This document shows, piece after piece, positions 4,002-58,298 of a DNA stretch of 64,000 nt. The DNA is from Bacteroidota bacterium (GTDB lineage: Bacteria; Bacteroidota; Bacteroidia; 2-12-FULL-35-15). Under the pieces are notes generated by a model. The model had not been told where the DNA came from and searched no databases. It worked only from the letters and a program-made list of their open reading frames with translations. The stretch's first letter is position 1. Each line of letters opens with the position of its first letter. The stretch spans positions 2,249 through 66,248 of the forward strand of contig CANIFU010000007.1 in the NCBI GenBank assembly GCA_947466965.1, read 5' to 3'. Position numbers and translations under genes: made by a program.

Positions 4002-5777
4002 ATGCAATTTTCTAACTTAATAGTTCGTTTTTTTCCTTTTAAAGCAATAAGAGGCGCTTTCTTATTTCTATTTCTTCTTTTCTCATCCATCTCCTCATTT
4101 GCCCAAAAGCTTTTCTCAATTGAAATCCAATCGGTTGACGCCCCCGACCTATTAAAAAAGATTCCTTACAAGAAGCAATTTGTTTCAAAAATTGAACGTG
4201 ATAAAGAACTCCAGAGCATGTTGTTTACTTGTTTTGATAATGCCTACTTAACTGCTTGTTTTGATAGTTTATATACCGATTCGCTTACCTTACGAGCGTT
4301 TTTGAATTTTGGAGCTCAATACAAATGGGCAAATCTAAAAAAAGGAAATATAGACGAGGGTGTTTTGAGTGCGATTGGATTTCGTGAAAAATTGTATGCA
4401 AACAAACCTGTTTCTTTTAAAAATGTAAAAAAGGTTCAGGAAAAACTTATCATGTTCTATGAAAATAACGGCTACCCTTTCGCTTCTGTGAAGCTCGATA
4501 GTATAGTTATTGGAGAAGGTATTATTTCTGCTCAGTTGAAACTTACCAAAAATTATGAAATAAAAATAGATAGCCTTGTTATTAAAGGAAATGCTAAAAT
4601 TACACCGGTGTATATTTATAATTATTTAGGTATAAAACCCGGTAGCTTGTATGATGAGTCGCAGTTAAAAAAGGTGAATACACGCATTGCCGAATTGCCT
4701 TTCATTCGTTCTACAAAACCTGCATTTGTTAGTTTTTCTGACAAATTCAATAAGTTAATATTAAATTTCGAAAAAAAACGGGCGAGTCAATTCGACGGTA
4801 TTATTGGCATTTTGCCCGATAATGCAACTGGTAAAATTTTGTTTACGGGTGATGTTCGACTGAAATTACAAAATGGTCTGGGTCGTGGTGAACTGATTGA
4901 TTTGAATTGGAGAAAATTACAATCGCAGACCCAAGACCTTAAGGTAAGATTGGTTTATCCTTTCATTCTTCGAACACCATTTGGTTTAGATTATAATTTT
5001 AAACTATATAAAAAAGACACTACTTTTTTAGACATTTATCAGAATATAGGTGTTCAATATTTATTGATTGGCGGAAATTATGTTAAAGTTTTTTATAATA
5101 ACAAAACATCTACTTTGCTTTCCACTAAAGGTTTGGAGTATTTAACATCTTTGCCGGCAAATGCCGATGTAAATACAAATATGTACGGACTAGGTATTAA
5201 ATATGAAAAACTTGACTATCGCTTGAATCCAAGAAAAGGTTTTTCTGTTTTGATGAATGCCAGTGCTGGTTCAAAAAAGATAAAGAAAAATGCAAAGCTA
5301 AATCCTATTGTCTATGAAAAGTTAAAATTGAGTTCTGCTTTGTATAATGGAGATGTTGAAGCTACCTTTTTTTTACCGATAGCCAATAGAAGTAGTATTA
5401 AAATTGGAGCACAAGCCGCTTTTATATATGGAGAAACTACTTTTCAGAATGAATTGTCGCGCATTGGTGGTTTAAAAACATTGCGTGGCTTTGATGAGGA
5501 ATCTATTTATGCCTCCTGCTACTCTATTTTAACCTTAGAATACAGGTTTATTCTGGAGCAGAATTCGTATTTGTATGTATTTGGCGATGGTGCTTGGTAC
5601 GAGAATAACGAAGTAAACCGATACGTGAAAGATACTCCTTTGGGTTTCGGTGCCGGTATTAGTTTCGAAACCAAAGCCGGTATTTTTTCTATTAATTACG
5701 CCTTGGGTAAACAATTCAGCAATCCGATTGAATTTCGTAGCGGAAAGATTCATTTTGGAATCGTTAATTATTTCTAA
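4002..5777 (+). CDS. Omp85/BamA-TamA family outer-membrane protein (POTRA + beta-barrel)
   Basis: Signal peptide, POTRA-like segment (KIDSLVIKGNAKITPVYIYNYLGIKPGSLYDESQL), long beta-rich C-terminal region ending in ...FGIVNYF (terminal aromatic, OMP signature). Confidence 0.65.
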   Translation: MQFSNLIVRFFPFKAIRGAFLFLFLLFSSISSFAQKLFSIEIQSVDAPDLLKKIPYKKQFVSKIERDKELQSMLFTCFDNAYLTACFDSLYTDSLTLRAFLNFGAQYKWANLKKGNIDEGVLSAIGFREKLYANKPVSFKNVKKVQEKLIMFYENNGYPFASVKLDSIVIGEGIISAQLKLTKNYEIKIDSLVIKGNAKITPVYIYNYLGIKPGSLYDESQLKKVNTRIAELPFIRSTKPAFVSFSDKFNKLILNFEKKRASQFDGIIGILPDNATGKILFTGDVRLKLQNGLGRGELIDLNWRKLQSQTQDLKVRLVYPFILRTPFGLDYNFKLYKKDTTFLDIYQNIGVQYLLIGGNYVKVFYNNKTSTLLSTKGLEYLTSLPANADVNTNMYGLGIKYEKLDYRLNPRKGFSVLMNASAGSKKIKKNAKLNPIVYEKLKLSSALYNGDVEATFFLPIANRSSIKIGAQAAFIYGETTFQNELSRIGGLKTLRGFDEESIYASCYSILTLEYRFILEQNSYLYVFGDGAWYENNEVNRYVKDTPLGFGAGISFETKAGIFSINYALGKQFSNPIEFRSGKIHFGIVNYF

Positions 5778-5816: not shown

Positions 5817-7211
5817 ATGCTTAAATTAGCCATTCTATTAGGACATGATTTTATGGATATTTTATTTTTATTAATTGGTCTGGTTTTAGGTTTTGGAATT
5901 GCTTTTTTGTTTTTAAAAGGAAAACAGCATGTAATGACTGATACATCCATCTTGGATTCGAAAATTATCGGATTGGAAAAGGATTGTTCTTTTGCCGAAA
6001 AAGAAAAAAATCGTATCCATTCCGAAAAGGAATTACTCAATAAGGAAGTGATTTTTATTCGTGAAGAATTAAACGCTTCAAATATTACTATTGCTAAAGC
6101 ACGTGAAGCTTTTAAGTCGCAGGAGGAAAAATTTACAACACTTAAATCCGAATTGGAGAACGTTCACAAAAAATATACTACAGAGTTCGAAAATATTGCA
6201 AATAAAATTTTGGATGAAAAATCCCAAAAATTTACTGAACAAAATAAAACCAATTTGGATGTTATTCTAAATCCTTTGAAGGATAATATCAAACGATTTG
6301 AAGAACAAGTTCAAAAAGCATATAAATCTGAGTCGGATGAACGCATCACTCTTAAAACTGAAATAAAGACCTTGGTAGATTTGAATAAACAAATCAGCCA
6401 AGAAGCACACAATCTCACCAAAGCATTAAAAGGTGAAAATAAAACGCAGGGTAACTGGGGTGAGCTAATTCTAGAAAAGGTTTTAGAGCGCTCTGGTTTA
6501 GTAAAAGATCAGGAATATCGGTTGCAATATAGTACTAGTAACGATGATGGGAAACGCATTCAGCCAGATGCAGTAATTATGTTACCTGATAATAAGCATA
6601 TAATTGTTGATGCCAAAGTTTCACTTATTGCCTATGAAGCATTTGTTAATTCTACCTCTGATGAAGAGCGATTGATTTTAATGAAGGACCATCTGTTTTC
6701 TGTAAGAACGCACATTAAATCCTTAAGTGAAAAAAATTATCCGACCTCCACTGATTTTAATACTCCTGATTTTGTGTTGTTGTTTATTCCTATTGAATCC
6801 TCTTTCATTGTTGCTGTTCAGGCGGATCAGGAATTATTTAATTTTGCTTGGGATAAAAAGATTGTAATCGTTAGTCCTTCTACATTATTGGCTACTTTAC
6901 GAACAATCGCTTCGGTTTGGAAACAAGAGCGTCAAACGAAAAATGCAATTGAAATAGCAAAGCAAAGTGGTGCATTGTACGATAAGTTTGTTGGATTTAT
7001 TGAAGATATGGATAAGATCGGAAAAGGAATTGATGCTTCGCGCAACGCATACGAAAACGCAATCAATAAGCTTCACAAAGGAAGTGGCAATTTAGTGAAG
7101 CGTGCTCAGGATATTGAAAAATTAGGAGCGAAAACAACTAAGCAGATCGCGTCTAAATTTATTGAAAATGATGAGCCATCACAATTAACAGAAGACTCTG
7201 AATTAGTATGA
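5817..7211 (+). CDS. rmuC: DNA recombination protein RmuC
   Basis: N-terminal TM helix plus coiled-coil, then the RmuC core (KTQGNWGELILEKVLERSGL...QPDAVIMLPDNKHIIVDAKVSL). Confidence 0.85.
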   Translation: MLKLAILLGHDFMDILFLLIGLVLGFGIAFLFLKGKQHVMTDTSILDSKIIGLEKDCSFAEKEKNRIHSEKELLNKEVIFIREELNASNITIAKAREAFKSQEEKFTTLKSELENVHKKYTTEFENIANKILDEKSQKFTEQNKTNLDVILNPLKDNIKRFEEQVQKAYKSESDERITLKTEIKTLVDLNKQISQEAHNLTKALKGENKTQGNWGELILEKVLERSGLVKDQEYRLQYSTSNDDGKRIQPDAVIMLPDNKHIIVDAKVSLIAYEAFVNSTSDEERLILMKDHLFSVRTHIKSLSEKNYPTSTDFNTPDFVLLFIPIESSFIVAVQADQELFNFAWDKKIVIVSPSTLLATLRTIASVWKQERQTKNAIEIAKQSGALYDKFVGFIEDMDKIGKGIDASRNAYENAINKLHKGSGNLVKRAQDIEKLGAKTTKQIASKFIENDEPSQLTEDSELV

Positions 7212-8473
7212 AAAAATATTGCTTATATATTTTATTGACGCTGTTTATTTTTGCATGTGGCTCCACCCGAAAAGTTGTTGAAAAAACTCCTTCAGCAAGT
7301 TATAAGCGCGATGTGAATACTATCCATCCCGAATTTACACTGTTTCATGTGAGTGATAGTGTTACCGAATTACACTATAAGATTAGTAGCAAAGAACTTT
7401 TATATACCCGTCCCGATGGATTAAATTTTTCTTCTAACTTATTAATTTCAATTCGCTTGATGAGTTCCTTTGATTCAAACCAAGTTATCGATAGTGCATC
7501 TGTTAGATTGGTGGATATCAACAATGACAATTTAAGCAAATACCTGATCGGTAAAATGAATGTGAAAGCCATCTCTCCAAGGAGTTATTTTCTTCGCATA
7601 AATATTACGGATATAAATAGAAATATAAGTGTTGCAAGTGTTATGGAAATTCAGAAAGATAATGATCTTAACCGCCAGAATTTTATAGTAAAATCAAAAT
7701 TAGATGATGCACCTATTTTTCATAATTACTTTAAATCAAACCAAGAATTATTGATTACTTACAAGGCGAAAATAGCTGTAACACTTTTTGTGAGATATTA
7801 TAACAGAACATTCCCTTTGGCTGCGCCCCCTTTTTCTTCGGTTGACCCTAGGCCCTTTCTTTACAAAGCAGATAGCTTGTTTACTATCCAGTTGGACCAA
7901 AATGGTGTTGCCAAATTTGCAGCTTCAAAAACTGGATTTTATCACTTTCAATTGGATACAACAAAACGGATAGGTCTGACTTTGTTTAATTTTTCGGAAA
8001 CATTTCCTGAAATAAAAAAAGCGGAAGAAATGGTTCCCCCTCTTCGTTATATTACTTCAAAACAGGAATATGATGAATTAAATTCGAGTGTAAATCCGAA
8101 AGGGGCTGTCGAAAAATTTTGGATGAATTGTACCGGAAATCAAGAACGTGCAAAAGAAATTATTCGCAAATATTACAACAGAGTAAGAGATGCAAACTTG
8201 TTTTTCACTTCCTATCTTGAAGGTTGGAAAACCGATAGAGGGGTTATTTTTCTCATTTACGGTGCACCTAATGTGATCTACCGTACAGCTTTTGCCGAAA
8301 CATGGACCTATGGTGAAGAAAATAATATTAACTCTCTCAGCTATTCTTTTTCCAAAGTAGACAATCCCTTTACTGATAATGATTATACGCTTGAACGTTC
8401 GGCTGTTTATAAACAAAACTGGGGTATTGCCGTAGATATTTGGCGTCAGGGTAGAACTTATTTACAAGATTAA
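7208..8473 (+). CDS. GWxTD-domain lipoprotein
   Basis: Lipobox (LFIFACGS). Contains a GWKTDRG motif followed by VIFLIYGAPN...ETWTYGE, characteristic of the GWxTD family. Start overlaps the rmuC stop by 4 bp (ATGA). Confidence 0.65.
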   Translation: MKKYCLYILLTLFIFACGSTRKVVEKTPSASYKRDVNTIHPEFTLFHVSDSVTELHYKISSKELLYTRPDGLNFSSNLLISIRLMSSFDSNQVIDSASVRLVDINNDNLSKYLIGKMNVKAISPRSYFLRINITDINRNISVASVMEIQKDNDLNRQNFIVKSKLDDAPIFHNYFKSNQELLITYKAKIAVTLFVRYYNRTFPLAAPPFSSVDPRPFLYKADSLFTIQLDQNGVAKFAASKTGFYHFQLDTTKRIGLTLFNFSETFPEIKKAEEMVPPLRYITSKQEYDELNSSVNPKGAVEKFWMNCTGNQERAKEIIRKYYNRVRDANLFFTSYLEGWKTDRGVIFLIYGAPNVIYRTAFAETWTYGEENNINSLSYSFSKVDNPFTDNDYTLERSAVYKQNWGIAVDIWRQGRTYLQD

Positions 8474-8486
8474 TATTTTAAAAATT

Positions 8487-9248
8487 ATGCAAACAAAACA
8501 GCAAAAAAAAGAAGAAGATAGTCTGATCTTTGGTTTAAGACCTTTAATAGAATCTATAAATGCTGGAAAAGAAATTGATAAATTACTCGTGCAAAGCGGA
8601 TTAAAAGGAGAGTTGGTGAGCCAATTGATGGGCTTGTTGAAACTAAACAATATTCCTTATCAATATGTTCCAGTAGAAAAATTAAATCGCATGACACAAA
8701 AAAATCATCAGGGTGTTGTCGGATATATTTCTTCTATCGGCTATTATAAAATTCAAGATGTTCTTCCTACTGTTTTTGAAGATGGAAAAGTTCCATTGTT
8801 GTTAATCTTAGATCGCATTACGGATGTTCGTAACTTCGGTGCAATCGCCCGTACAGCTGAATGTTCAGGTGTAAATGCAATCATTATTCCTTCTCGTGGT
8901 AGTGCTCAGATAAACGCAGATGCTATTAAAACATCTACGGGTGCTTTGCAAAAAATACCAGTTTGTAAAGAAGAAAATTTAAAATCTACTATCGATTATC
9001 TTCATGAATGTGGACTACAGGTTATTGCTTGTACCGAAAAAACAACAGATTATTATTTTCAGATCGATTTCACAGTGCCTACAGCTATAATAATGGGATC
9101 TGAAGAAGACGGAATTTTAAATGAATATCTTCAGAAATCAGATGGAAAAGCTAAAATTCCATTGATGGGTGAGATCGGTTCATTAAATGTTTCTGTTGCA
9201 GCAGGGATTATTTTATACGAAGCTGTTAGTCAACGTTTAGTTCATTAA
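8487..9248 (+). CDS. rlmB: 23S rRNA (guanosine-2'-O)-methyltransferase, SpoU/TrmH family (RlmB-like)
   Basis: SpoU substrate-binding N-terminal domain plus TrmH motifs (LLILDRITDVRNFGAIARTAECSGVNAIIIP; IIMGSEEDGI). Confidence 0.8.
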   Translation: MQTKQQKKEEDSLIFGLRPLIESINAGKEIDKLLVQSGLKGELVSQLMGLLKLNNIPYQYVPVEKLNRMTQKNHQGVVGYISSIGYYKIQDVLPTVFEDGKVPLLLILDRITDVRNFGAIARTAECSGVNAIIIPSRGSAQINADAIKTSTGALQKIPVCKEENLKSTIDYLHECGLQVIACTEKTTDYYFQIDFTVPTAIIMGSEEDGILNEYLQKSDGKAKIPLMGEIGSLNVSVAAGIILYEAVSQRLVH

Positions 9249-40427: not shown

Positions 40428-41201
40428 ATGCGTATTAATCTATATCTATTTATTTTATTTTCTCTTTTTTCTTTTTCCATTTTCGGTCAGGAGTTAAAGG
40501 ATGATCTTTCTCGTTTGGAACGTGGCGAAGATTTAAAAGTTCTTTATCGTAACGAATCCAGTATTTCACTGTATGTTCATTCTGCAGGAGGTTTGGGTTT
40601 AGCTTATCGTCGAGGATATCATGTGCATGGTACTCGTAAGCGCATGTTTGAAATTGAAGTTCAGAATTTCAGACATCCCAAAGAAATTAAAAGTGTAAAT
40701 GCCTATTACGATAATGCCAAAGGGTTTAGTTATGGTAAATTAAATTCGTTTTTGATCATCCGTCCCGGTATAGGATTTCAGAATATTTTATTTGAGAAGT
40801 TAGAGAAAAAAAATGTGGAAATTCGTTATTCTTACTTTATAGGAGCAACATTGGCTTTTGCAAAACCTGTTTACCTAGAAATTATTGTTCCAACATCAGA
40901 CCCAACCGTAAATACAATTTCAACAACACGATATGATCCGAATGAACACTTTCCTTCTGAAATTTATGGGAAAGCAAGCTTTTTTAAAGGAATTGATCAA
41001 ACCCGTATTTACCCTGGAGGTTATGCAAAAGTGGCCTTGAGCTTTGAGTATGGAAAGCGTTACAATGTAATTAAAGCAATTGAAACAGGAGCCGTACTGG
41101 ATGTTTACCCTACCGTACTTCCTATGATGGCTTTCAACAAAAATCAACAAGTATTTGTTTCTTTGTACTTGAAGATGGTATGGGGAAAGAAATGGTTTTG
41201 A
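40428..41201 (+). CDS. hypothetical secreted beta-rich protein (possible small outer-membrane barrel)
   Basis: Signal peptide MRINLYLFILFSLFSFSIFGQ. Alternating hydrophobic pattern with a C-terminal ...WGKKWF aromatic end. The listed 40374 start is an upstream extension. Confidence 0.5.
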   Translation: MRINLYLFILFSLFSFSIFGQELKDDLSRLERGEDLKVLYRNESSISLYVHSAGGLGLAYRRGYHVHGTRKRMFEIEVQNFRHPKEIKSVNAYYDNAKGFSYGKLNSFLIIRPGIGFQNILFEKLEKKNVEIRYSYFIGATLAFAKPVYLEIIVPTSDPTVNTISTTRYDPNEHFPSEIYGKASFFKGIDQTRIYPGGYAKVALSFEYGKRYNVIKAIETGAVLDVYPTVLPMMAFNKNQQVFVSLYLKMVWGKKWF

Positions 41202-41288
41202 TAAGTAGTAAATGAAAAAAATGAATGAGAAATCAATTTAGGCTCAATTCCTTTCAAGCCATTTACAAATCAAATTAATGAAATTATT

Positions 41289-42161
41289 ATGTCCGACACG
41301 CTAATATCCGAAGAAAGAAAATTTCAACGTAAACCTGATTGGTTGCGGGTTAAATTGCCAACAGGAAAAGAGTATTCTCAAGTCCGAGAAATTGTTTCTA
41401 AACATAAATTACATACAATCTGTGAAAGTGGAAATTGTCCGAATATGGGTGAATGCTGGGGTGCTGGTACTGCAACTTTTATGATTCTTGGTAATATTTG
41501 TACACGCTCCTGCGGATTTTGCAACGTTGCCACTGGAAGACCTTTATCTGTTGATCTGCAAGAGCCTGAAAGAGTTGCAGAATCAGTTCGTTTGATGAAT
41601 GTGAAACATTGCGTTATCACATCTGTTGATCGTGATGACTTAAAAGATGGTGGTTCCACTATTTGGGCGGAAACAATTAATGCAATCAGAAGAGTTAGTC
41701 CTCAAACAAAATTTGAAACACTGATTCCTGATTTTCAAGGGAAGTGGGAAAACTTACAACGTATCATTGATGTAAAGCCTGATATTGTTTCTCATAATTT
41801 AGAAACGGTTCGCCGACTTACAAAACAAGTGCGCATACAAGCAAAATACGACAGAAGTTTAGAAGTGTTAAAGCGTTTAAAAGATGCTGGTGTAAAAACA
41901 AAATGCGGTGTGATGCTTGGTTTGGGTGAAACCGAACATGAAGTAATTGAAACAATGAATGATTTGAGGGCTGTTGGTTGTGATGTATTAACATTAGGGC
42001 AATATCTTCAGCCAACCACAAAGCATTTGCCTGTTGCCGAATTTGTTCGACCGGAAGTATTCGCAAAATATAAAGAGATCGGTTTATCAAAAGGATTTCG
42101 TTTTGTTGAAAGCGGTCCGTTGGTGAGATCCTCTTATCACGCTGAAAAGCATATATTTTAA
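41289..42161 (+). CDS. lipA: lipoyl synthase
   Basis: Two Cys clusters ([12 protein letters not shown] and CTRSCGFC, the radical-SAM CxxxCxxC) and the C-terminal SSY motif. Confidence 0.95.
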
Positions 42162-42164
42162 AAA

Positions 42165-42183
42165 AAATTAAACACATAGACAC
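42165..42183 (+). repeat. 19-bp repeat AAATTAAACACATAGACAC, copy 1 (immediately 3' of lipA stop)
   Basis: Identical to 43025..43043. The reverse complement occurs at 43229..43247. Confidence 0.7.
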
Positions 42184-42224
42184 TTAGAAAAAAGGAAGAT
42201 TAAGCACTTTTCGTTTAGCGTTTC

Positions 42225-42262
42225 ACATAGCCCATAAATCGTTAACGATTTATGGGCTATGT
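42225..42262. repeat. perfect 38-bp palindrome (17-bp arms around a GTTAAC centre)
   Basis: ACATAGCCCATAAATCG-TTAA-CGATTTATGGGCTATGT reads identically on both strands. There is no T-run following it. Confidence 0.85.
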
Positions 42263-42423
42263 ACTTATCTAATCTGCTTGCATATTAATAATCCGTTTTA
42301 AATCCATTCTTGCTCCGAAAAAATCAGTATAAATCCGTTTTATCTGCGTCATCCGTGTTCCATTTCCACGAATGTTCCATCCGAAGTCGCATTATTTTTC
42401 CAGCATCGAACTACTTTTCACTC

Positions 42424-42431
42424 TATCTTTG
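42424..42431 (+). promoter_or_regulatory. putative -7 box (TATCTTTG) for the pentapeptide-repeat gene
   Basis: TAnnTTTG consensus 22 bp upstream of the ATG at 42454. Confidence 0.3.
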
Positions 42432-42453
42432 TAATGAAATTCCACTAAGTAAA

Positions 42454-43026
42454 ATGAGCATAACAATAACCGAAAATAAAACATTTGAAAAAAGTAATTT
42501 TCCTGAAACTTCTTTGCAAAAAGGAGAATATGAAAATTGTAAATTCAAAGATTGTGATTTTTCAAATGCTCATTTATCCAACTATATTTTTGTGGATTGT
42601 GAATTTATCGATTGCAATTTAAGTCTGACCAAATTCAGTAATACTGCATTGAAGACAGTGAAGTTTAAAAATTGCAAAGTATTAGGAGTGAATTTTGCTG
42701 AATGCAACGACTTTTTGTTTGCTGTAAATTTTGAAGATTGTTTGTTGAATTTATCCATGTTCTACAATACAAAACTAAAAGGAACAAAGTTCAAAAATTG
42801 TAGTCTGCACGAAGTGGACTTTACGGAGACGGATTTAACAAATGCAACCTTTGATAATTGCGATTTGATGGGTGCTATTTTCAGAAATTCTATTTTAGAA
42901 AAAGCAGATTTAAGAACAGCCTTTCATTTTTCGATTGACCCGGAAGCAAATAGAATGAAGAAAGCAAAATTTTCACGAATGGGATTGGATGGGTTGCTTC
43001 ATAAGTATGGCATTGATGTAACGTAA
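42454..43026 (+). CDS. pentapeptide-repeat protein
   Basis: Tandem A(D/N)LxX-type pentapeptide repeats throughout (CKFKDCDFSNAHLSNYIFVDCEFIDCNLSLTKFSNTALK...). The first Met after the promoter-like box is at 42454; the listed 42310 start is a likely spurious extension. Confidence 0.75.
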   Translation: MSITITENKTFEKSNFPETSLQKGEYENCKFKDCDFSNAHLSNYIFVDCEFIDCNLSLTKFSNTALKTVKFKNCKVLGVNFAECNDFLFAVNFEDCLLNLSMFYNTKLKGTKFKNCSLHEVDFTETDLTNATFDNCDLMGAIFRNSILEKADLRTAFHFSIDPEANRMKKAKFSRMGLDGLLHKYGIDVT

Positions 43027-43044
43027 ATTAAACACATAGACACA
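43025..43044 (+). repeat. repeat copy 2 (immediately 3' of pentapeptide gene stop); left arm of a 19-bp inverted repeat
   Basis: TTAAACACATAGACACATA at 43026..43044 is the exact reverse complement of 43229..43247. Confidence 0.8.
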
Positions 43045-43228
43045 TAAAAAAAATATAAAAGGTTGGGGTGTTATTACATAGAAAAAAATAAATTTTGTAC
43101 ACAGACATCTCTCTATCTTTGATAGCTTGCTTCAAACATATGAAAACACAAAGGAAAAATAGAATTAAGAAAATAGAATAATGATCGTTTTGCAGCATTC
43201 GCACATTCGTAACTAAAAAGGTAAAAAC

Positions 43229-43247
43229 TATGTGTCTATGTGTTTAA
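43229..43247 (-). repeat. inverted copy of the AACACATAGACAC repeat (right arm), 30 bp upstream of gap
   Basis: TATGTGTCTATGTGTTTAA. The two arms enclose about 184 bp of AT-rich sequence that contains a TATCTTTG box (43113..43120). Confidence 0.8.
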
Positions 43248-43276
43248 AAATCCATGATTAAAAGACAAATCACTAA

Positions 43277-44281
<1,005 letters not shown>

Positions 44282-44308
44282 AATAAGTAGAATTGTTGTA
44301 TTGAGATT

Positions 44309-44348
44309 AAGTCAGGCTGTATAACGAATTTTGATACAGGCTTATTTT
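44309..44348 (+). terminator. probable terminator after gap
   Basis: AGTCAGGCTGTAT...ATACAGGCTTATTTTT imperfect hairpin plus T-run. Confidence 0.5.
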
Positions 44349-44404
44349 TCCAAATAAATTATAAATTATAAAAAATAATTTACAGTAAAAAGAATGTACT
44401 TATT

Positions 44405-45154
44405 CTATTTATAGATTTTTAGTTCCAAATTATCTCCATCAAATACCGCATATGTATTGTGGTTGATCCATTCTCCTAAATTAATGTAGCGACTATTTTT
44501 ATTCAGTTGTATATCGAGCGGTAAATGGCGGTGACCGAAAATAAAATAATCAAAATGTTCTTTTTGTAAAATTTCTCTGCAGTAAACAGCTAACCATTCG
44601 TGTTCTTCACCTTTAAATTGTTCATCTTTTGGAGCATTTGATGCTCTGCTTTTGCGCGACCAAAAATGGGCCATTCCTATTCCGAAATTTGGATGGATGC
44701 GTGCAAAAAGCCATTGATTAATTGGACTTGTGAATATTTTCTTGATGAACTTATAGCCATAATCACCAGGTCCTAATCCATCACCATGTCCCAAATAAAA
44801 TTTCTTACCATTGTATTCTTTCGTTATTGGCTTGCGGTGAATCCTTACTCCTAATTCTTTTTCTAAATAATCAAACATCCACACATCGTGATTTCCGGTG
44901 AAAAGGGTGATTGGGATTCCTGAATCAACAATCTCGGCAATTTTACCAAGTAAACGAATAAAGCCTTTTGGAACAGCATGTTTGTATTCAAACCAAAAAT
45001 CAAAAACATCGCCCATTAAATAAATTTCCTGAGCATCTTGTTTTACATCGTCCAGCCATTTTACAATAAATTTTTCTCGCTCCAAACTTCTTTCATAGTT
45101 TGGAACACCAAGATGAAAGTCGGACGCAAAGTATATTTTTTTGTTTGGTGTCAT
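44405..45154 (-). CDS. lpxH: UDP-2,3-diacylglucosamine diphosphatase (LpxH-family calcineurin-like phosphoesterase)
   Basis: DFHLG...GDVFD...GNHD metallophosphoesterase motifs in LpxH order. lpxK is also present in this window. Confidence 0.75.
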   Translation of the reverse strand: MTPNKKIYFASDFHLGVPNYERSLEREKFIVKWLDDVKQDAQEIYLMGDVFDFWFEYKHAVPKGFIRLLGKIAEIVDSGIPITLFTGNHDVWMFDYLEKELGVRIHRKPITKEYNGKKFYLGHGDGLGPGDYGYKFIKKIFTSPINQWLFARIHPNFGIGMAHFWSRKSRASNAPKDEQFKGEEHEWLAVYCREILQKEHFDYFIFGHRHLPLDIQLNKNSRYINLGEWINHNTYAVFDGDNLELKIYK

Positions 45155-56493: not shown

Positions 56494-56513
56494 TTGCTCA
56501 ACCGAATCATTTA

Positions 56514-56550
56514 AAAAGCCCTTCGTAAAAATTACGAAGGGCTTTTTAAG
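56514..56550 (+). terminator. rho-independent terminator
   Basis: AAAAGCCCTTCGTAAAAATTACGAAGGGCTTTTTAAG. Confidence 0.85.
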
Positions 56551-56621
56551 TTATTTTAAATATTTTAGAAATTAATTTATTTTCATATATTCACGTGTAA
56601 CTATTTTAACTCTCATTTCAT

Positions 56622-58223: not shown

Positions 58224-58242
58224 AAAATAAATGCACAAATAT

Positions 58243-58275
58243 CCCTTCTTAAAATTTACGAAGGGCTTTTTATTA
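58243..58275. terminator. rho-independent terminator between convergent genes
   Basis: CCCTTCTTAAAATTTACGAAGGGCTTTTTATT shares the TTACGAAGGGCTTTTTA core with the terminator at 56514..56550. Confidence 0.7.
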
Positions 58276-58298
58276 GAATCTAAATAGGGCAGTTGAAA

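Follow-up and report, generated by a model that had tools for sequence, protein, structure and literature searches.

Correia/NEMIS elements of Neisseria are examples of MITEs (miniature inverted-repeat transposable elements), and they can sit upstream of genes, to which they plausibly supply promoters; a MITE is also described from Porphyromonas gingivalis. Intervening sequences of 23S rRNA genes encode small proteins between long inverted repeats. Repetitive extragenic palindromic (REP) sequences and the related REPINs are short intergenic repeats tied to a Y1-HUH transposase, the REP-associated tyrosine transposase or RAYT (Nunvar 2010; Bertels and Rainey 2011). Here, we describe a 64,000-nt stretch of DNA (hereafter the window) from an uncultured Bacteroidota bacterium (assembly GCA_947466965.1, contig CANIFU010000007.1), in which a gene for a pentapeptide-repeat protein (PRP) lies between lipA and gap and next to a 220-bp inverted-repeat element, named E2. 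A first-pass annotation had taken the PRP gene, with the 19-bp direct repeats on its two sides, for something like an inserted cassette or a duplication junction. We consider it likely that these repeats are instead the termini of a family of small inverted-repeat elements associated with genes for GxxExxY proteins, that E2 is a member of this family without an open reading frame (ORF) and that the PRP gene is an old resident of the locus, lost or exchanged at such termini.

Terminus copies in the lipA-gap interval and element E2

The PRP gene (42454..43026, plus strand) starts at ATG 42454, rather than at the TTG of an ORF beginning at 42310, and encodes a 190-aa protein matching Pfam Pentapeptide_4 and Pentapeptide. 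It is preceded by lipA (lipoyl synthase; 41289..42161, plus strand; Pfam Radical_SAM and LIAS_N) and followed by gap (glyceraldehyde-3-phosphate dehydrogenase, GAPDH; 43277..44281, plus strand; Pfam Gp_dh_N and Gp_dh_C). The exact 19-mer AAATTAAACACATAGACAC was found on the plus strand at 42165-42183 (copy 1) and 43025-43043 (copy 2), confirming the direct repeats of the first-pass annotation, and the repeat extends to 29 nt with 93% identity (42165-42193 / 43025-43053). The repeats do lie directly at two stop codons, as had been proposed: copy 1 begins 4 nt past the lipA stop (TAA 42159-42161), while copy 2 overlaps that of the PRP gene (TAA 43024-43026). A third copy, inverted and absent from that annotation, was detected at 43228-43250 with an exact 12-nt core (ACACATAGACAC), which occurs only at these three places in the window. 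Allowing up to 3 mismatches, AAATTAAACACATAGACAC has 3 matches in the window, compared to 0.03 expected from shuffled sequences. As read from the sequence, the core consists of the tandem octamer ACACATAG ACACATAG. Copy 1 (42165..42187, plus strand) is a solo F-type terminus, AAATTAAACACATAGACACTTAG, located after the lipA stop, whereas the two other copies belong together: copy 2 (43025..43047, plus strand) is the F-type terminus of E2, overlying the PRP stop codon, and copy 3 (43228..43250, minus strand) is its R-type terminus, CTATGTGTCTATGTGTTTAAAAA.

Copies 2 and 3 include a perfect 19-nt inverted repeat (43028-43046 / 43229-43247; 19/19 positions complementary) with 182 nt in between, and the 220 bp delimited by these ends (43028..43247, plus strand) define E2. 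The sole ORF that can be drawn in E2 starts with GTG on the minus strand and encodes 58 aa of low complexity, and the aligned family members have none. E2 aligns with elements of about 185-220 bp found at unrelated loci in metagenome-assembled genomes (MAGs) of sister lake bacteria (L029, L070, L087, L111, L116 and L109), with differing flanks at three loci in CAMCUO01 (L029, L070 and L087) and at three in CANNHN01, whose elements in the alignment include L111 and L116. E2 and these dispersed relatives have in common the internal boxes ATAGAAAAATAAATTTTTTACATAGA and the palindrome TTGAAGCTTGCTTCAA, the family consensus of the central imperfect palindrome TTTGATAGCTTGCTTCAAA of E2 (43118..43136). 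E2 thereby displays the terminal inverted repeats, the small non-coding body and the multiple dispersed, non-orthologous copies by which MITEs are recognized. An internal box, ACATAGAAAAAAATAAATTTTGTACACAGAC (43076..43106, plus strand), is homologous to the leader that separates the terminus from the ATG of a GxxExxY gene in L147, a relative from the genus of the window. Because this leader is common to E2 and to the GxxExxY gene of a same-genus relative, E2 appears to derive from a GxxExxY element in the manner of a MITE.

The position of such elements relative to genes is regular, since a co-oriented gene starts 18-67 nt past the R end in 8/8 family members, representing seven independent loci. 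Three of these eight elements sit between divergent genes, and the promoter of the downstream gene must therefore be in or at the element. From the sequence of E2 we read a candidate element-borne promoter for gap, of the form TTTG-N16-TATCTTTG (43094..43121, plus strand), and we infer that E2 can drive transcription of gap or, at the least, let it pass.

A terminus family tied to GxxExxY genes

Scanning species-representative genomes, one per species, with the exact pattern TTAAACACATAGACACWTA returned at least 120 stretches, compared to about 6-10 expected by chance according to our estimate from base composition. Nearly all of the matches listed are from Bacteroidota and they are spread over many families, with hosts such as Flavobacterium, Chitinophagales, Saprospiraceae, Prolixibacteraceae, Cyclobacteriaceae, Pedobacter and others. 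The first-pass annotation had itself named repeats found after many genes as the observation that would speak against a cassette, and this is what we found. Among the matches listed, about 85 loci have a convergent inverted partner at most 250 nt away, with a spacing that is typical of each lineage (about 30-40, 100, 115-140 or 175-180 nt), and the usual layout is a terminus, a spacer, a central hairpin enclosed in CATAG...CTATG, a second spacer and an inverted terminus. Nearly all listed termini are intergenic (116/120), and on their outer side a stop codon is found within 30 nt in 41 cases and a start codon within 30 nt in 24. Since 41 of them lie that close to a stop codon, the placement of the window copies right after stop codons appears as a habit of the family. 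A single match to the 19-mer was found in viral contigs, so that carriage by phages is no major feature of the family, and a literature search did not find the motif string in any paper.

Some loci carry tandem arrays of termini: L097 (269-1310) has at least 19 copies with a 53-nt period, and the arrays of L074 (4810-5330) and L051 (301-650) have periods of 21-22 nt and 41 nt, respectively. Motif-bearing contigs are also present in MAG CALRIY02 (L046, L113 and L124), which is titled 'Synechococcus sp. UW140' and is probably mislabelled or misbinned. The same probably applies to the closest lake MAGs, CAMCUO01 and CAMCYR01 (L029, L070, L079 and L087), titled 'Chitinophaga pinensis'.

In L025, L091 and L098, the two termini of a pair are 430-550 nt apart and each pair encloses one ORF, encoding a GxxExxY protein identified as TIGR04256 / PF13366 PDDEXK_3. 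In L147, a GxxExxY gene (8172-8603, minus strand) is likewise preceded by a terminus and a leader box of the E2 type. As the first examples came from loci that had been selected by the motif, GxxExxY homologues were then chosen by protein alone to remove this selection bias, and all six of the genes obtained in this manner turned out to be bracketed by inverted tandem-octamer termini. In L149, L152, L154 and L155, one terminus lies 1-160 nt upstream of the start codon and the other 1-26 nt downstream of the stop codon. The two others come from complete records of cultured strains, a Bacteroides finegoldii plasmid and a Bernardetia replicon, whose termini use the variant unit CACAGAG; a search of plasmids gave only two distant GxxExxY matches, both of which were informative. 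All six genes are co-oriented with both of their neighbors, which have unrelated functions. An alignment of eight sequences shows no variation in the GxxExxY motif or in the catalytic residues D...ExK.

ORF-bearing elements with the same ends and leader as the short elements thus encode a GxxExxY protein of the PD-(D/E)XK type. This was seen in a second lineage as well, where the leader GGCGTTTCAC is common to ORF-less Flavobacterium elements and to the ORF-bearing L155. Since leaders are common to the ORF-less and ORF-bearing forms, it seems that in two lineages the short elements arose from the local ORF-bearing element by internal deletion. If a GxxExxY element is defined by inverted tandem-octamer termini made of CAC[AG][TG]AG units on both sides of a PF13366 gene, or as an ORF-less derivative keeping such termini and the leader, then E2 belongs to the second class.

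Between orders (Flavobacterium, Bacteroidia and the genus of the window), GxxExxY proteins are 75-87% identical, far above what housekeeping proteins typically show over comparable distances, which is consistent with horizontal spread. Close relatives of the window also differ at another spacer, between genes encoding a metallophosphoesterase and an M1 peptidase: L147 (7947-8700) and L145 (14655-14819) carry an E2-type element there, the L147 GxxExxY gene lies in this same spacer, and the window has only 110 nt between the two genes.

The elements might alternatively act as structural devices at the RNA level that are not, or no longer, mobile, such as hairpins resembling REP sequences or bacterial interspersed mosaic elements (BIMEs) that terminate, process (through RNase III) or stabilize transcripts; the local triplet would then reflect selection for insulation between lipA, PRP and gap. 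The 19-bp closing stem does form in the predicted RNA fold of E2 (z = -3.2), the elements are found at the 3' ends of genes, and they are always co-oriented with the downstream gene and, in the case of GxxExxY genes, with both neighbors. However, the E2 stem is followed by AAAAATCC, an A-run rather than a U-run, and no terminator-like site was found in 41000-44500, where 2.1 were expected; a promoter and terminator scan of the region gave nothing exceeding shuffled sequences. Searches against Rfam provided no family either: at gathering thresholds the window yields a tRNA only, and in E-value mode 42100-43320 gave only chance miRNA-type matches on the palindrome. Moreover, it is the sequence that is conserved and not the pairing alone, and ORF-bearing and ORF-less forms have ends and leaders in common, as is classic for autonomous elements and their derivatives. 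We therefore find a mainly structural or RNA-level role unlikely, although such a function would be compatible with a GxxExxY-associated element family as a secondary, exapted role.

PRP, its promoter and the history of the lipA-gap interval

The PRP gene is preceded by a promoter-like box, P1 (CTTTTCACTCTATCTTTG; 42414..42431, plus strand), containing a Bacteroidota -7 type TAnnTTTG. The TATCTTTG box that the first-pass annotation had assigned to this gene proved to be real: it lies inside P1 at 42424-42431, is unique in the window and is conserved in relatives. The closest solved relative of the protein is the gyrase-protecting, McbG-like AlbG (PDB 2xt4/2xt2; E = 3e-34, residues 17-188), followed by MfpA and Qnr. 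Thus, similarity to Qnr and MfpA, as had been suggested, does exist, but PRP scores only 59.2 bits against the curated NCBIfam cut-off of 240 for Qnr (NF033086) and 50.6 bits against 360 for MfpA (NF000349). A topoisomerase-protecting role of PRP is plausible on the basis of these sequence matches. PRP homologues with 55-60% identity are common chromosomal genes in Bacteroidota.

Relatives of the locus were gathered via a neighboring 275-aa protein and via PRP homologues. Distances between gap genes separate two clades: clade A consists of the window and L079 (87% nucleotide identity), and clade B of L145, L146, L147 and L018, which are 83-86% identical among themselves and about 80% identical to clade A; lipA distances were taken with L147 left out. 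In the window and in L079, lipA is followed by copy 1 and the IG1 spacer, P1, PRP, E2 and gap. L018 has IG1, P1, PRP, 6 nt and gap. L147 has lipA, another spacer, P1, PRP, an unrelated inverted-repeat element, a second P1-like box and gap. L146 lacks PRP and E2, and shows lipA, a degenerate copy 1, IG1 minus a 49-nt palindrome module, P1 and gap. Finally, in L145, lipA is followed by one perfect terminus, an E2 orthologue with the same right flank and gap, with no IG1, P1 or PRP. E2 is therefore absent from L018, L146 and L147. At the position of copy 1, L079 has 3 changes, L146 the degenerate TTAAACGCACAGAGACATAG and L145 a perfect terminus.

PRP is thus found beside gap in both clades, with between-clade nucleotide identities of 76-78% for PRP and 78-81% for gap, and its orthologues in L018 and L147 (79% identical) adjoin gap without the repeats of the window. 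P1 precedes PRP in the window, L079, L018 and L147; it precedes gap in L146, and L147 has a second copy in front of gap, such that IG1 and P1 are common to genomes with and without PRP. Since PRP occurs in both clades and since IG1 and P1 occur with or without it, PRP and P1 look like old residents, which L145 and L146 would have lost independently. Judging from these comparisons, PRP is most simply ancestral in the lipA-gap interval of this genus, not cargo. The arrangement of lipA followed directly by gap with a single repeat copy, which the first-pass annotation had proposed to look for, does exist in L145, as an apparent deletion product: recombination between the direct copies 1 and 2 would leave precisely this state, and an in-silico deletion between the two window copies aligns with L145 at 242/315 columns. 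We considered L145 as an ancestral empty site and rejected this, because the IG1/P1 spacer that it lacks is common to both clades.

A comparison of the window with L079 revealed a more recent event. The two species differ by 13.5% of nucleotides in lipA, with 98/118 differences at third codon positions, and by 12.6% in gap, but by only 1.4% in PRP, 4.0% in E2 and 0/104 positions in the 104 nt upstream of PRP that include P1. Hence, PRP, its promoter and E2 are about 98% identical between genomes whose flanking lipA and gap genes differ by about 13%. Divergence resumes a few bases past copy 3 and climbs gradually leftward of about 42350, which points to recent transfer or conversion, between species, of a tract of about 0.9 kb that ends at the outer E2 terminus. 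A second patch of low divergence, at 44134-44433 (95-97% identity vs a background of about 85%), spans the 3' end of gap and the spacer between gap and the metallophosphoesterase gene, and mosaic exchange may be common between the species of the window and that of L079, which is just an 86%-identity orthologue of the uncultured lineage of the window.

These data bear on the cassette proposed at first, in which a PRP unit of about 860 bp would be a recently inserted mobile cassette and the direct repeats a target-site duplication or att-like sites. Several observations fit: the repeats stand exactly at both stop codons, PRP-less relatives exist and one of them has a single repeat copy, PRP is nearly identical between species with far more divergent flanks, and PRP homologues of 60-67% identity occupy other gene contexts. 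However, the repeat is a family terminus at no fewer than 120 sites across Bacteroidota, and copy 2 pairs with the inverted copy 3 into a separate element. Furthermore, the spacer and P1 are native to the locus, both occurring in L146, which has no PRP; PRP and gap have diverged in parallel over both clades, and PRP stands next to gap in L018 and L147 in the absence of these repeats. No integrase or transposase was found nearby, the genes within about 6 kb on either side being housekeeping genes. Thus, what stands of the cassette is a unit that is variably present, through loss rather than insertion, and recently exchanged, and we regard recent insertion, with repeats specific to the cassette, as highly improbable.

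Other parts of the interval vary as well. A hairpin module at 42223..42264 contains a perfect 38-nt loopless palindrome (42225-42262) flanked by CACATAG / CTATGT, has the same CATAG-hairpin-CTATG layout as the center of elements at other loci and corresponds to a 49-nt indel relative to the homologous L146 spacer; many Logan contigs start or end within this palindrome. A candidate degenerate R-type terminus of another subfamily may be present at 42342..42361 (ATCTGCGTCATCCGTGTTCC, tandem 9-mers), about where the low-divergence tract with L079 starts: by eye, it matches the R terminus at 12/18 positions, it is similar to the variant-unit termini that flank the GxxExxY gene of Bacteroides, and a related stretch is found in L146 and L018. 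In L147, the lipA-PRP spacer opens with tandem GTAACTAG-type octamers (5104-5140), and the PRP-gap spacer (5913-6123) has the unrelated inverted-repeat element TTGTCAGTTCGAGTG ... CACTCGAACTGACAA followed by the second P1-like box; recombination between the two L147 P1 boxes would yield the arrangement of L146.

In the same-species strain BUCK21-1, scaffold_490 (L012 7650-7762) is identical to the window through 42935 and then diverges in the 3' end of PRP (window 42936-43026), resulting in a 174-aa PRP with a different C-terminus, and a second contig, ERZ1426532, has four small ORFs (122, 112, 136 and 70 aa) in place of gap. This has the appearance of an insertion, or of a replacement, at the 3' end of PRP. 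Elsewhere in the window, a terminator-like hairpin, AAAAAGCCCTTCGTAAAAATTACGAAGGGCTTTTT, is present in two copies 1.7 kb apart (56505-56562 and 58237-58286) and is unrelated to the CACATAG family.

A proposed element family and its comparison with known systems

In the model that we favor, the three local copies would derive from one conserved terminal sequence, TTAAAC-ACATAG-ACACATAG, built on the tandem octamer. Full-length members of the family would be about 450-700 bp long and carry one gene between inverted termini, encoding a GxxExxY protein of about 135 aa with a predicted PD-(D/E)XK nuclease fold, while ORF-less derivatives of 50-220 bp would be common in intergenic spacers, often abutting stop codons. 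Copy 1 would be an older solo terminus with a separate hairpin module beside it. As direct copies, copies 1 and 2 would be substrates for deletion, and L145 would have lost exactly the stretch between the two, with the spacer, P1 and PRP, while the ends of the element seem to coincide with the edges of the recently exchanged tract. The GxxExxY nuclease may recognize or cleave the termini and mobilize the elements, breaks directed to the termini could underlie both the deletion and the conversion tract, and E2 may give gap a promoter or allow read-through. More broadly, we tentatively suggest, as a possibility that we do not favor at present, that GxxExxY proteins are the nucleases of an as yet unrecognized class of compact mobile elements of Bacteroidota with tandem-octamer terminal inverted repeats, which would insert co-oriented into intergenic spacers and whose derivatives, ORF-less ones such as E2 keeping an outward-reading promoter, would rewire operons and, as points of breakage or homology, drive gene loss (PRP in L145) and short conversion tracts between species (PRP and E2 in the window species and L079).

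Several points weigh against the favored model. The window has only one full element, E2, and no GxxExxY gene, and the unbiased sample of GxxExxY genes comprises six. GxxExxY proteins have no sequence match in the PDB, and we know of no activity of any of them. PF13366 is listed as being of function unknown, with 'multiple transfers' (PMC3424549). Mobility is argued only from dispersed copies and from presence or absence among diverged genomes; no clean pair of filled and empty sites with a target-site duplication was found at E2 (L018 vs the window) or in the metallophosphoesterase/M1-peptidase spacer (L147 and L145 vs the window), where spacers are too diverged, and the TTAA read at both ends is palindromic and hence ambiguous. 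In addition, the trees of PRP and gap do not agree in full, and, L145 and L079 both being metagenome contigs, the deletion and the low-divergence tract could be mimicked by a chimeric path or a mis-join precisely at these repeats.

One may also imagine that no mobile element is involved and that the motif is the operator of a conserved Bacteroidota transcription factor co-regulating PRP and gap, given that its exact sequence is kept over a phylum as if recognized by a protein, that tandem octamers resemble repeated half-sites and that sites lie near promoters and gene ends, but we rejected this reading of the three copies as barely credible, because the sites are mostly convergent pairs bounding modules of lineage-typical length with internal hairpins, bracket GxxExxY genes in each of the unbiased cases, adjoin functionally unrelated genes and form arrays of up to 19 copies (L097), and because copy 1 decays freely in relatives.

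If correct, the GxxExxY-element model ties an intergenic sequence that is very abundant in Bacteroidota to a protein family that is itself very abundant (PF13366/TIGR04256, thousands of copies) and gives both a testable role, as a nuclease-associated mini-element with MITE-like derivatives just upstream of genes. We found no published description of this link in the searchable literature, where GxxExxY and PF13366 have incidental mentions only, although it may be known informally to annotators. It also means that a gyrase-protector-like gene that had the look of a mobile resistance cassette is more convincingly interpreted as a long-standing gene of the chromosome, lost or exchanged at the ends of repeat elements, which bears on how such PRP genes are scored in resistome surveys.

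Among known systems, PRP is comparable to the topoisomerase protectors AlbG/McbG, MfpA and Qnr as a 190-aa protein made entirely of pentapeptide repeats, but it is chromosomal and widespread in Bacteroidota. The PRP unit has in common with integron cassettes a single small accessory gene and a repeat at the 3' end of consecutive ORFs; in contrast, neither IntI nor attI was found nearby, the repeat is not attC-like by eye and recurs at 120 or more other sites, and PRP has its own conserved promoter, P1, so that the combination of attC, a promoterless cassette and an intI/attI platform is not seen here. Like 23S rRNA intervening sequences, full-length elements have a small ORF within long complementary ends and would lie inside a host transcript, with a stem that is a plausible RNase III substrate, but they are located in mRNA spacers instead of rRNA helices and encode a different protein family. 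Similarly to REP/REPIN sequences, they are short intergenic repeats at gene ends, usually inverted doublets able to form hairpins, and they are tied to one small nuclease-type protein family. However, the terminus lacks a head of the GTAG or CGTC type and is built as a direct tandem repeat instead of a palindrome, and the protein has a PD-(D/E)XK fold (PF13366) instead of Y1-HUH, its gene being located between the repeats and in multiple copies; neither the terminus nor its associated gene thus corresponds to the palindromic GTAG/CGTC REP and Y1-HUH RAYT that characterize that system. Compared to MITEs, the family differs by a partner that encodes a PD-(D/E)XK GxxExxY protein of about 135 aa, rather than a DDE, HUH or serine transposase, and by termini that are tandem octamers conserved over whole orders. 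As in MITEs, its members are intergenic, have no ORF, measure only 50-220 bp, end in inverted repeats and occur in many dispersed copies, and their ends and subterminal sequence are common to a longer, ORF-bearing version.

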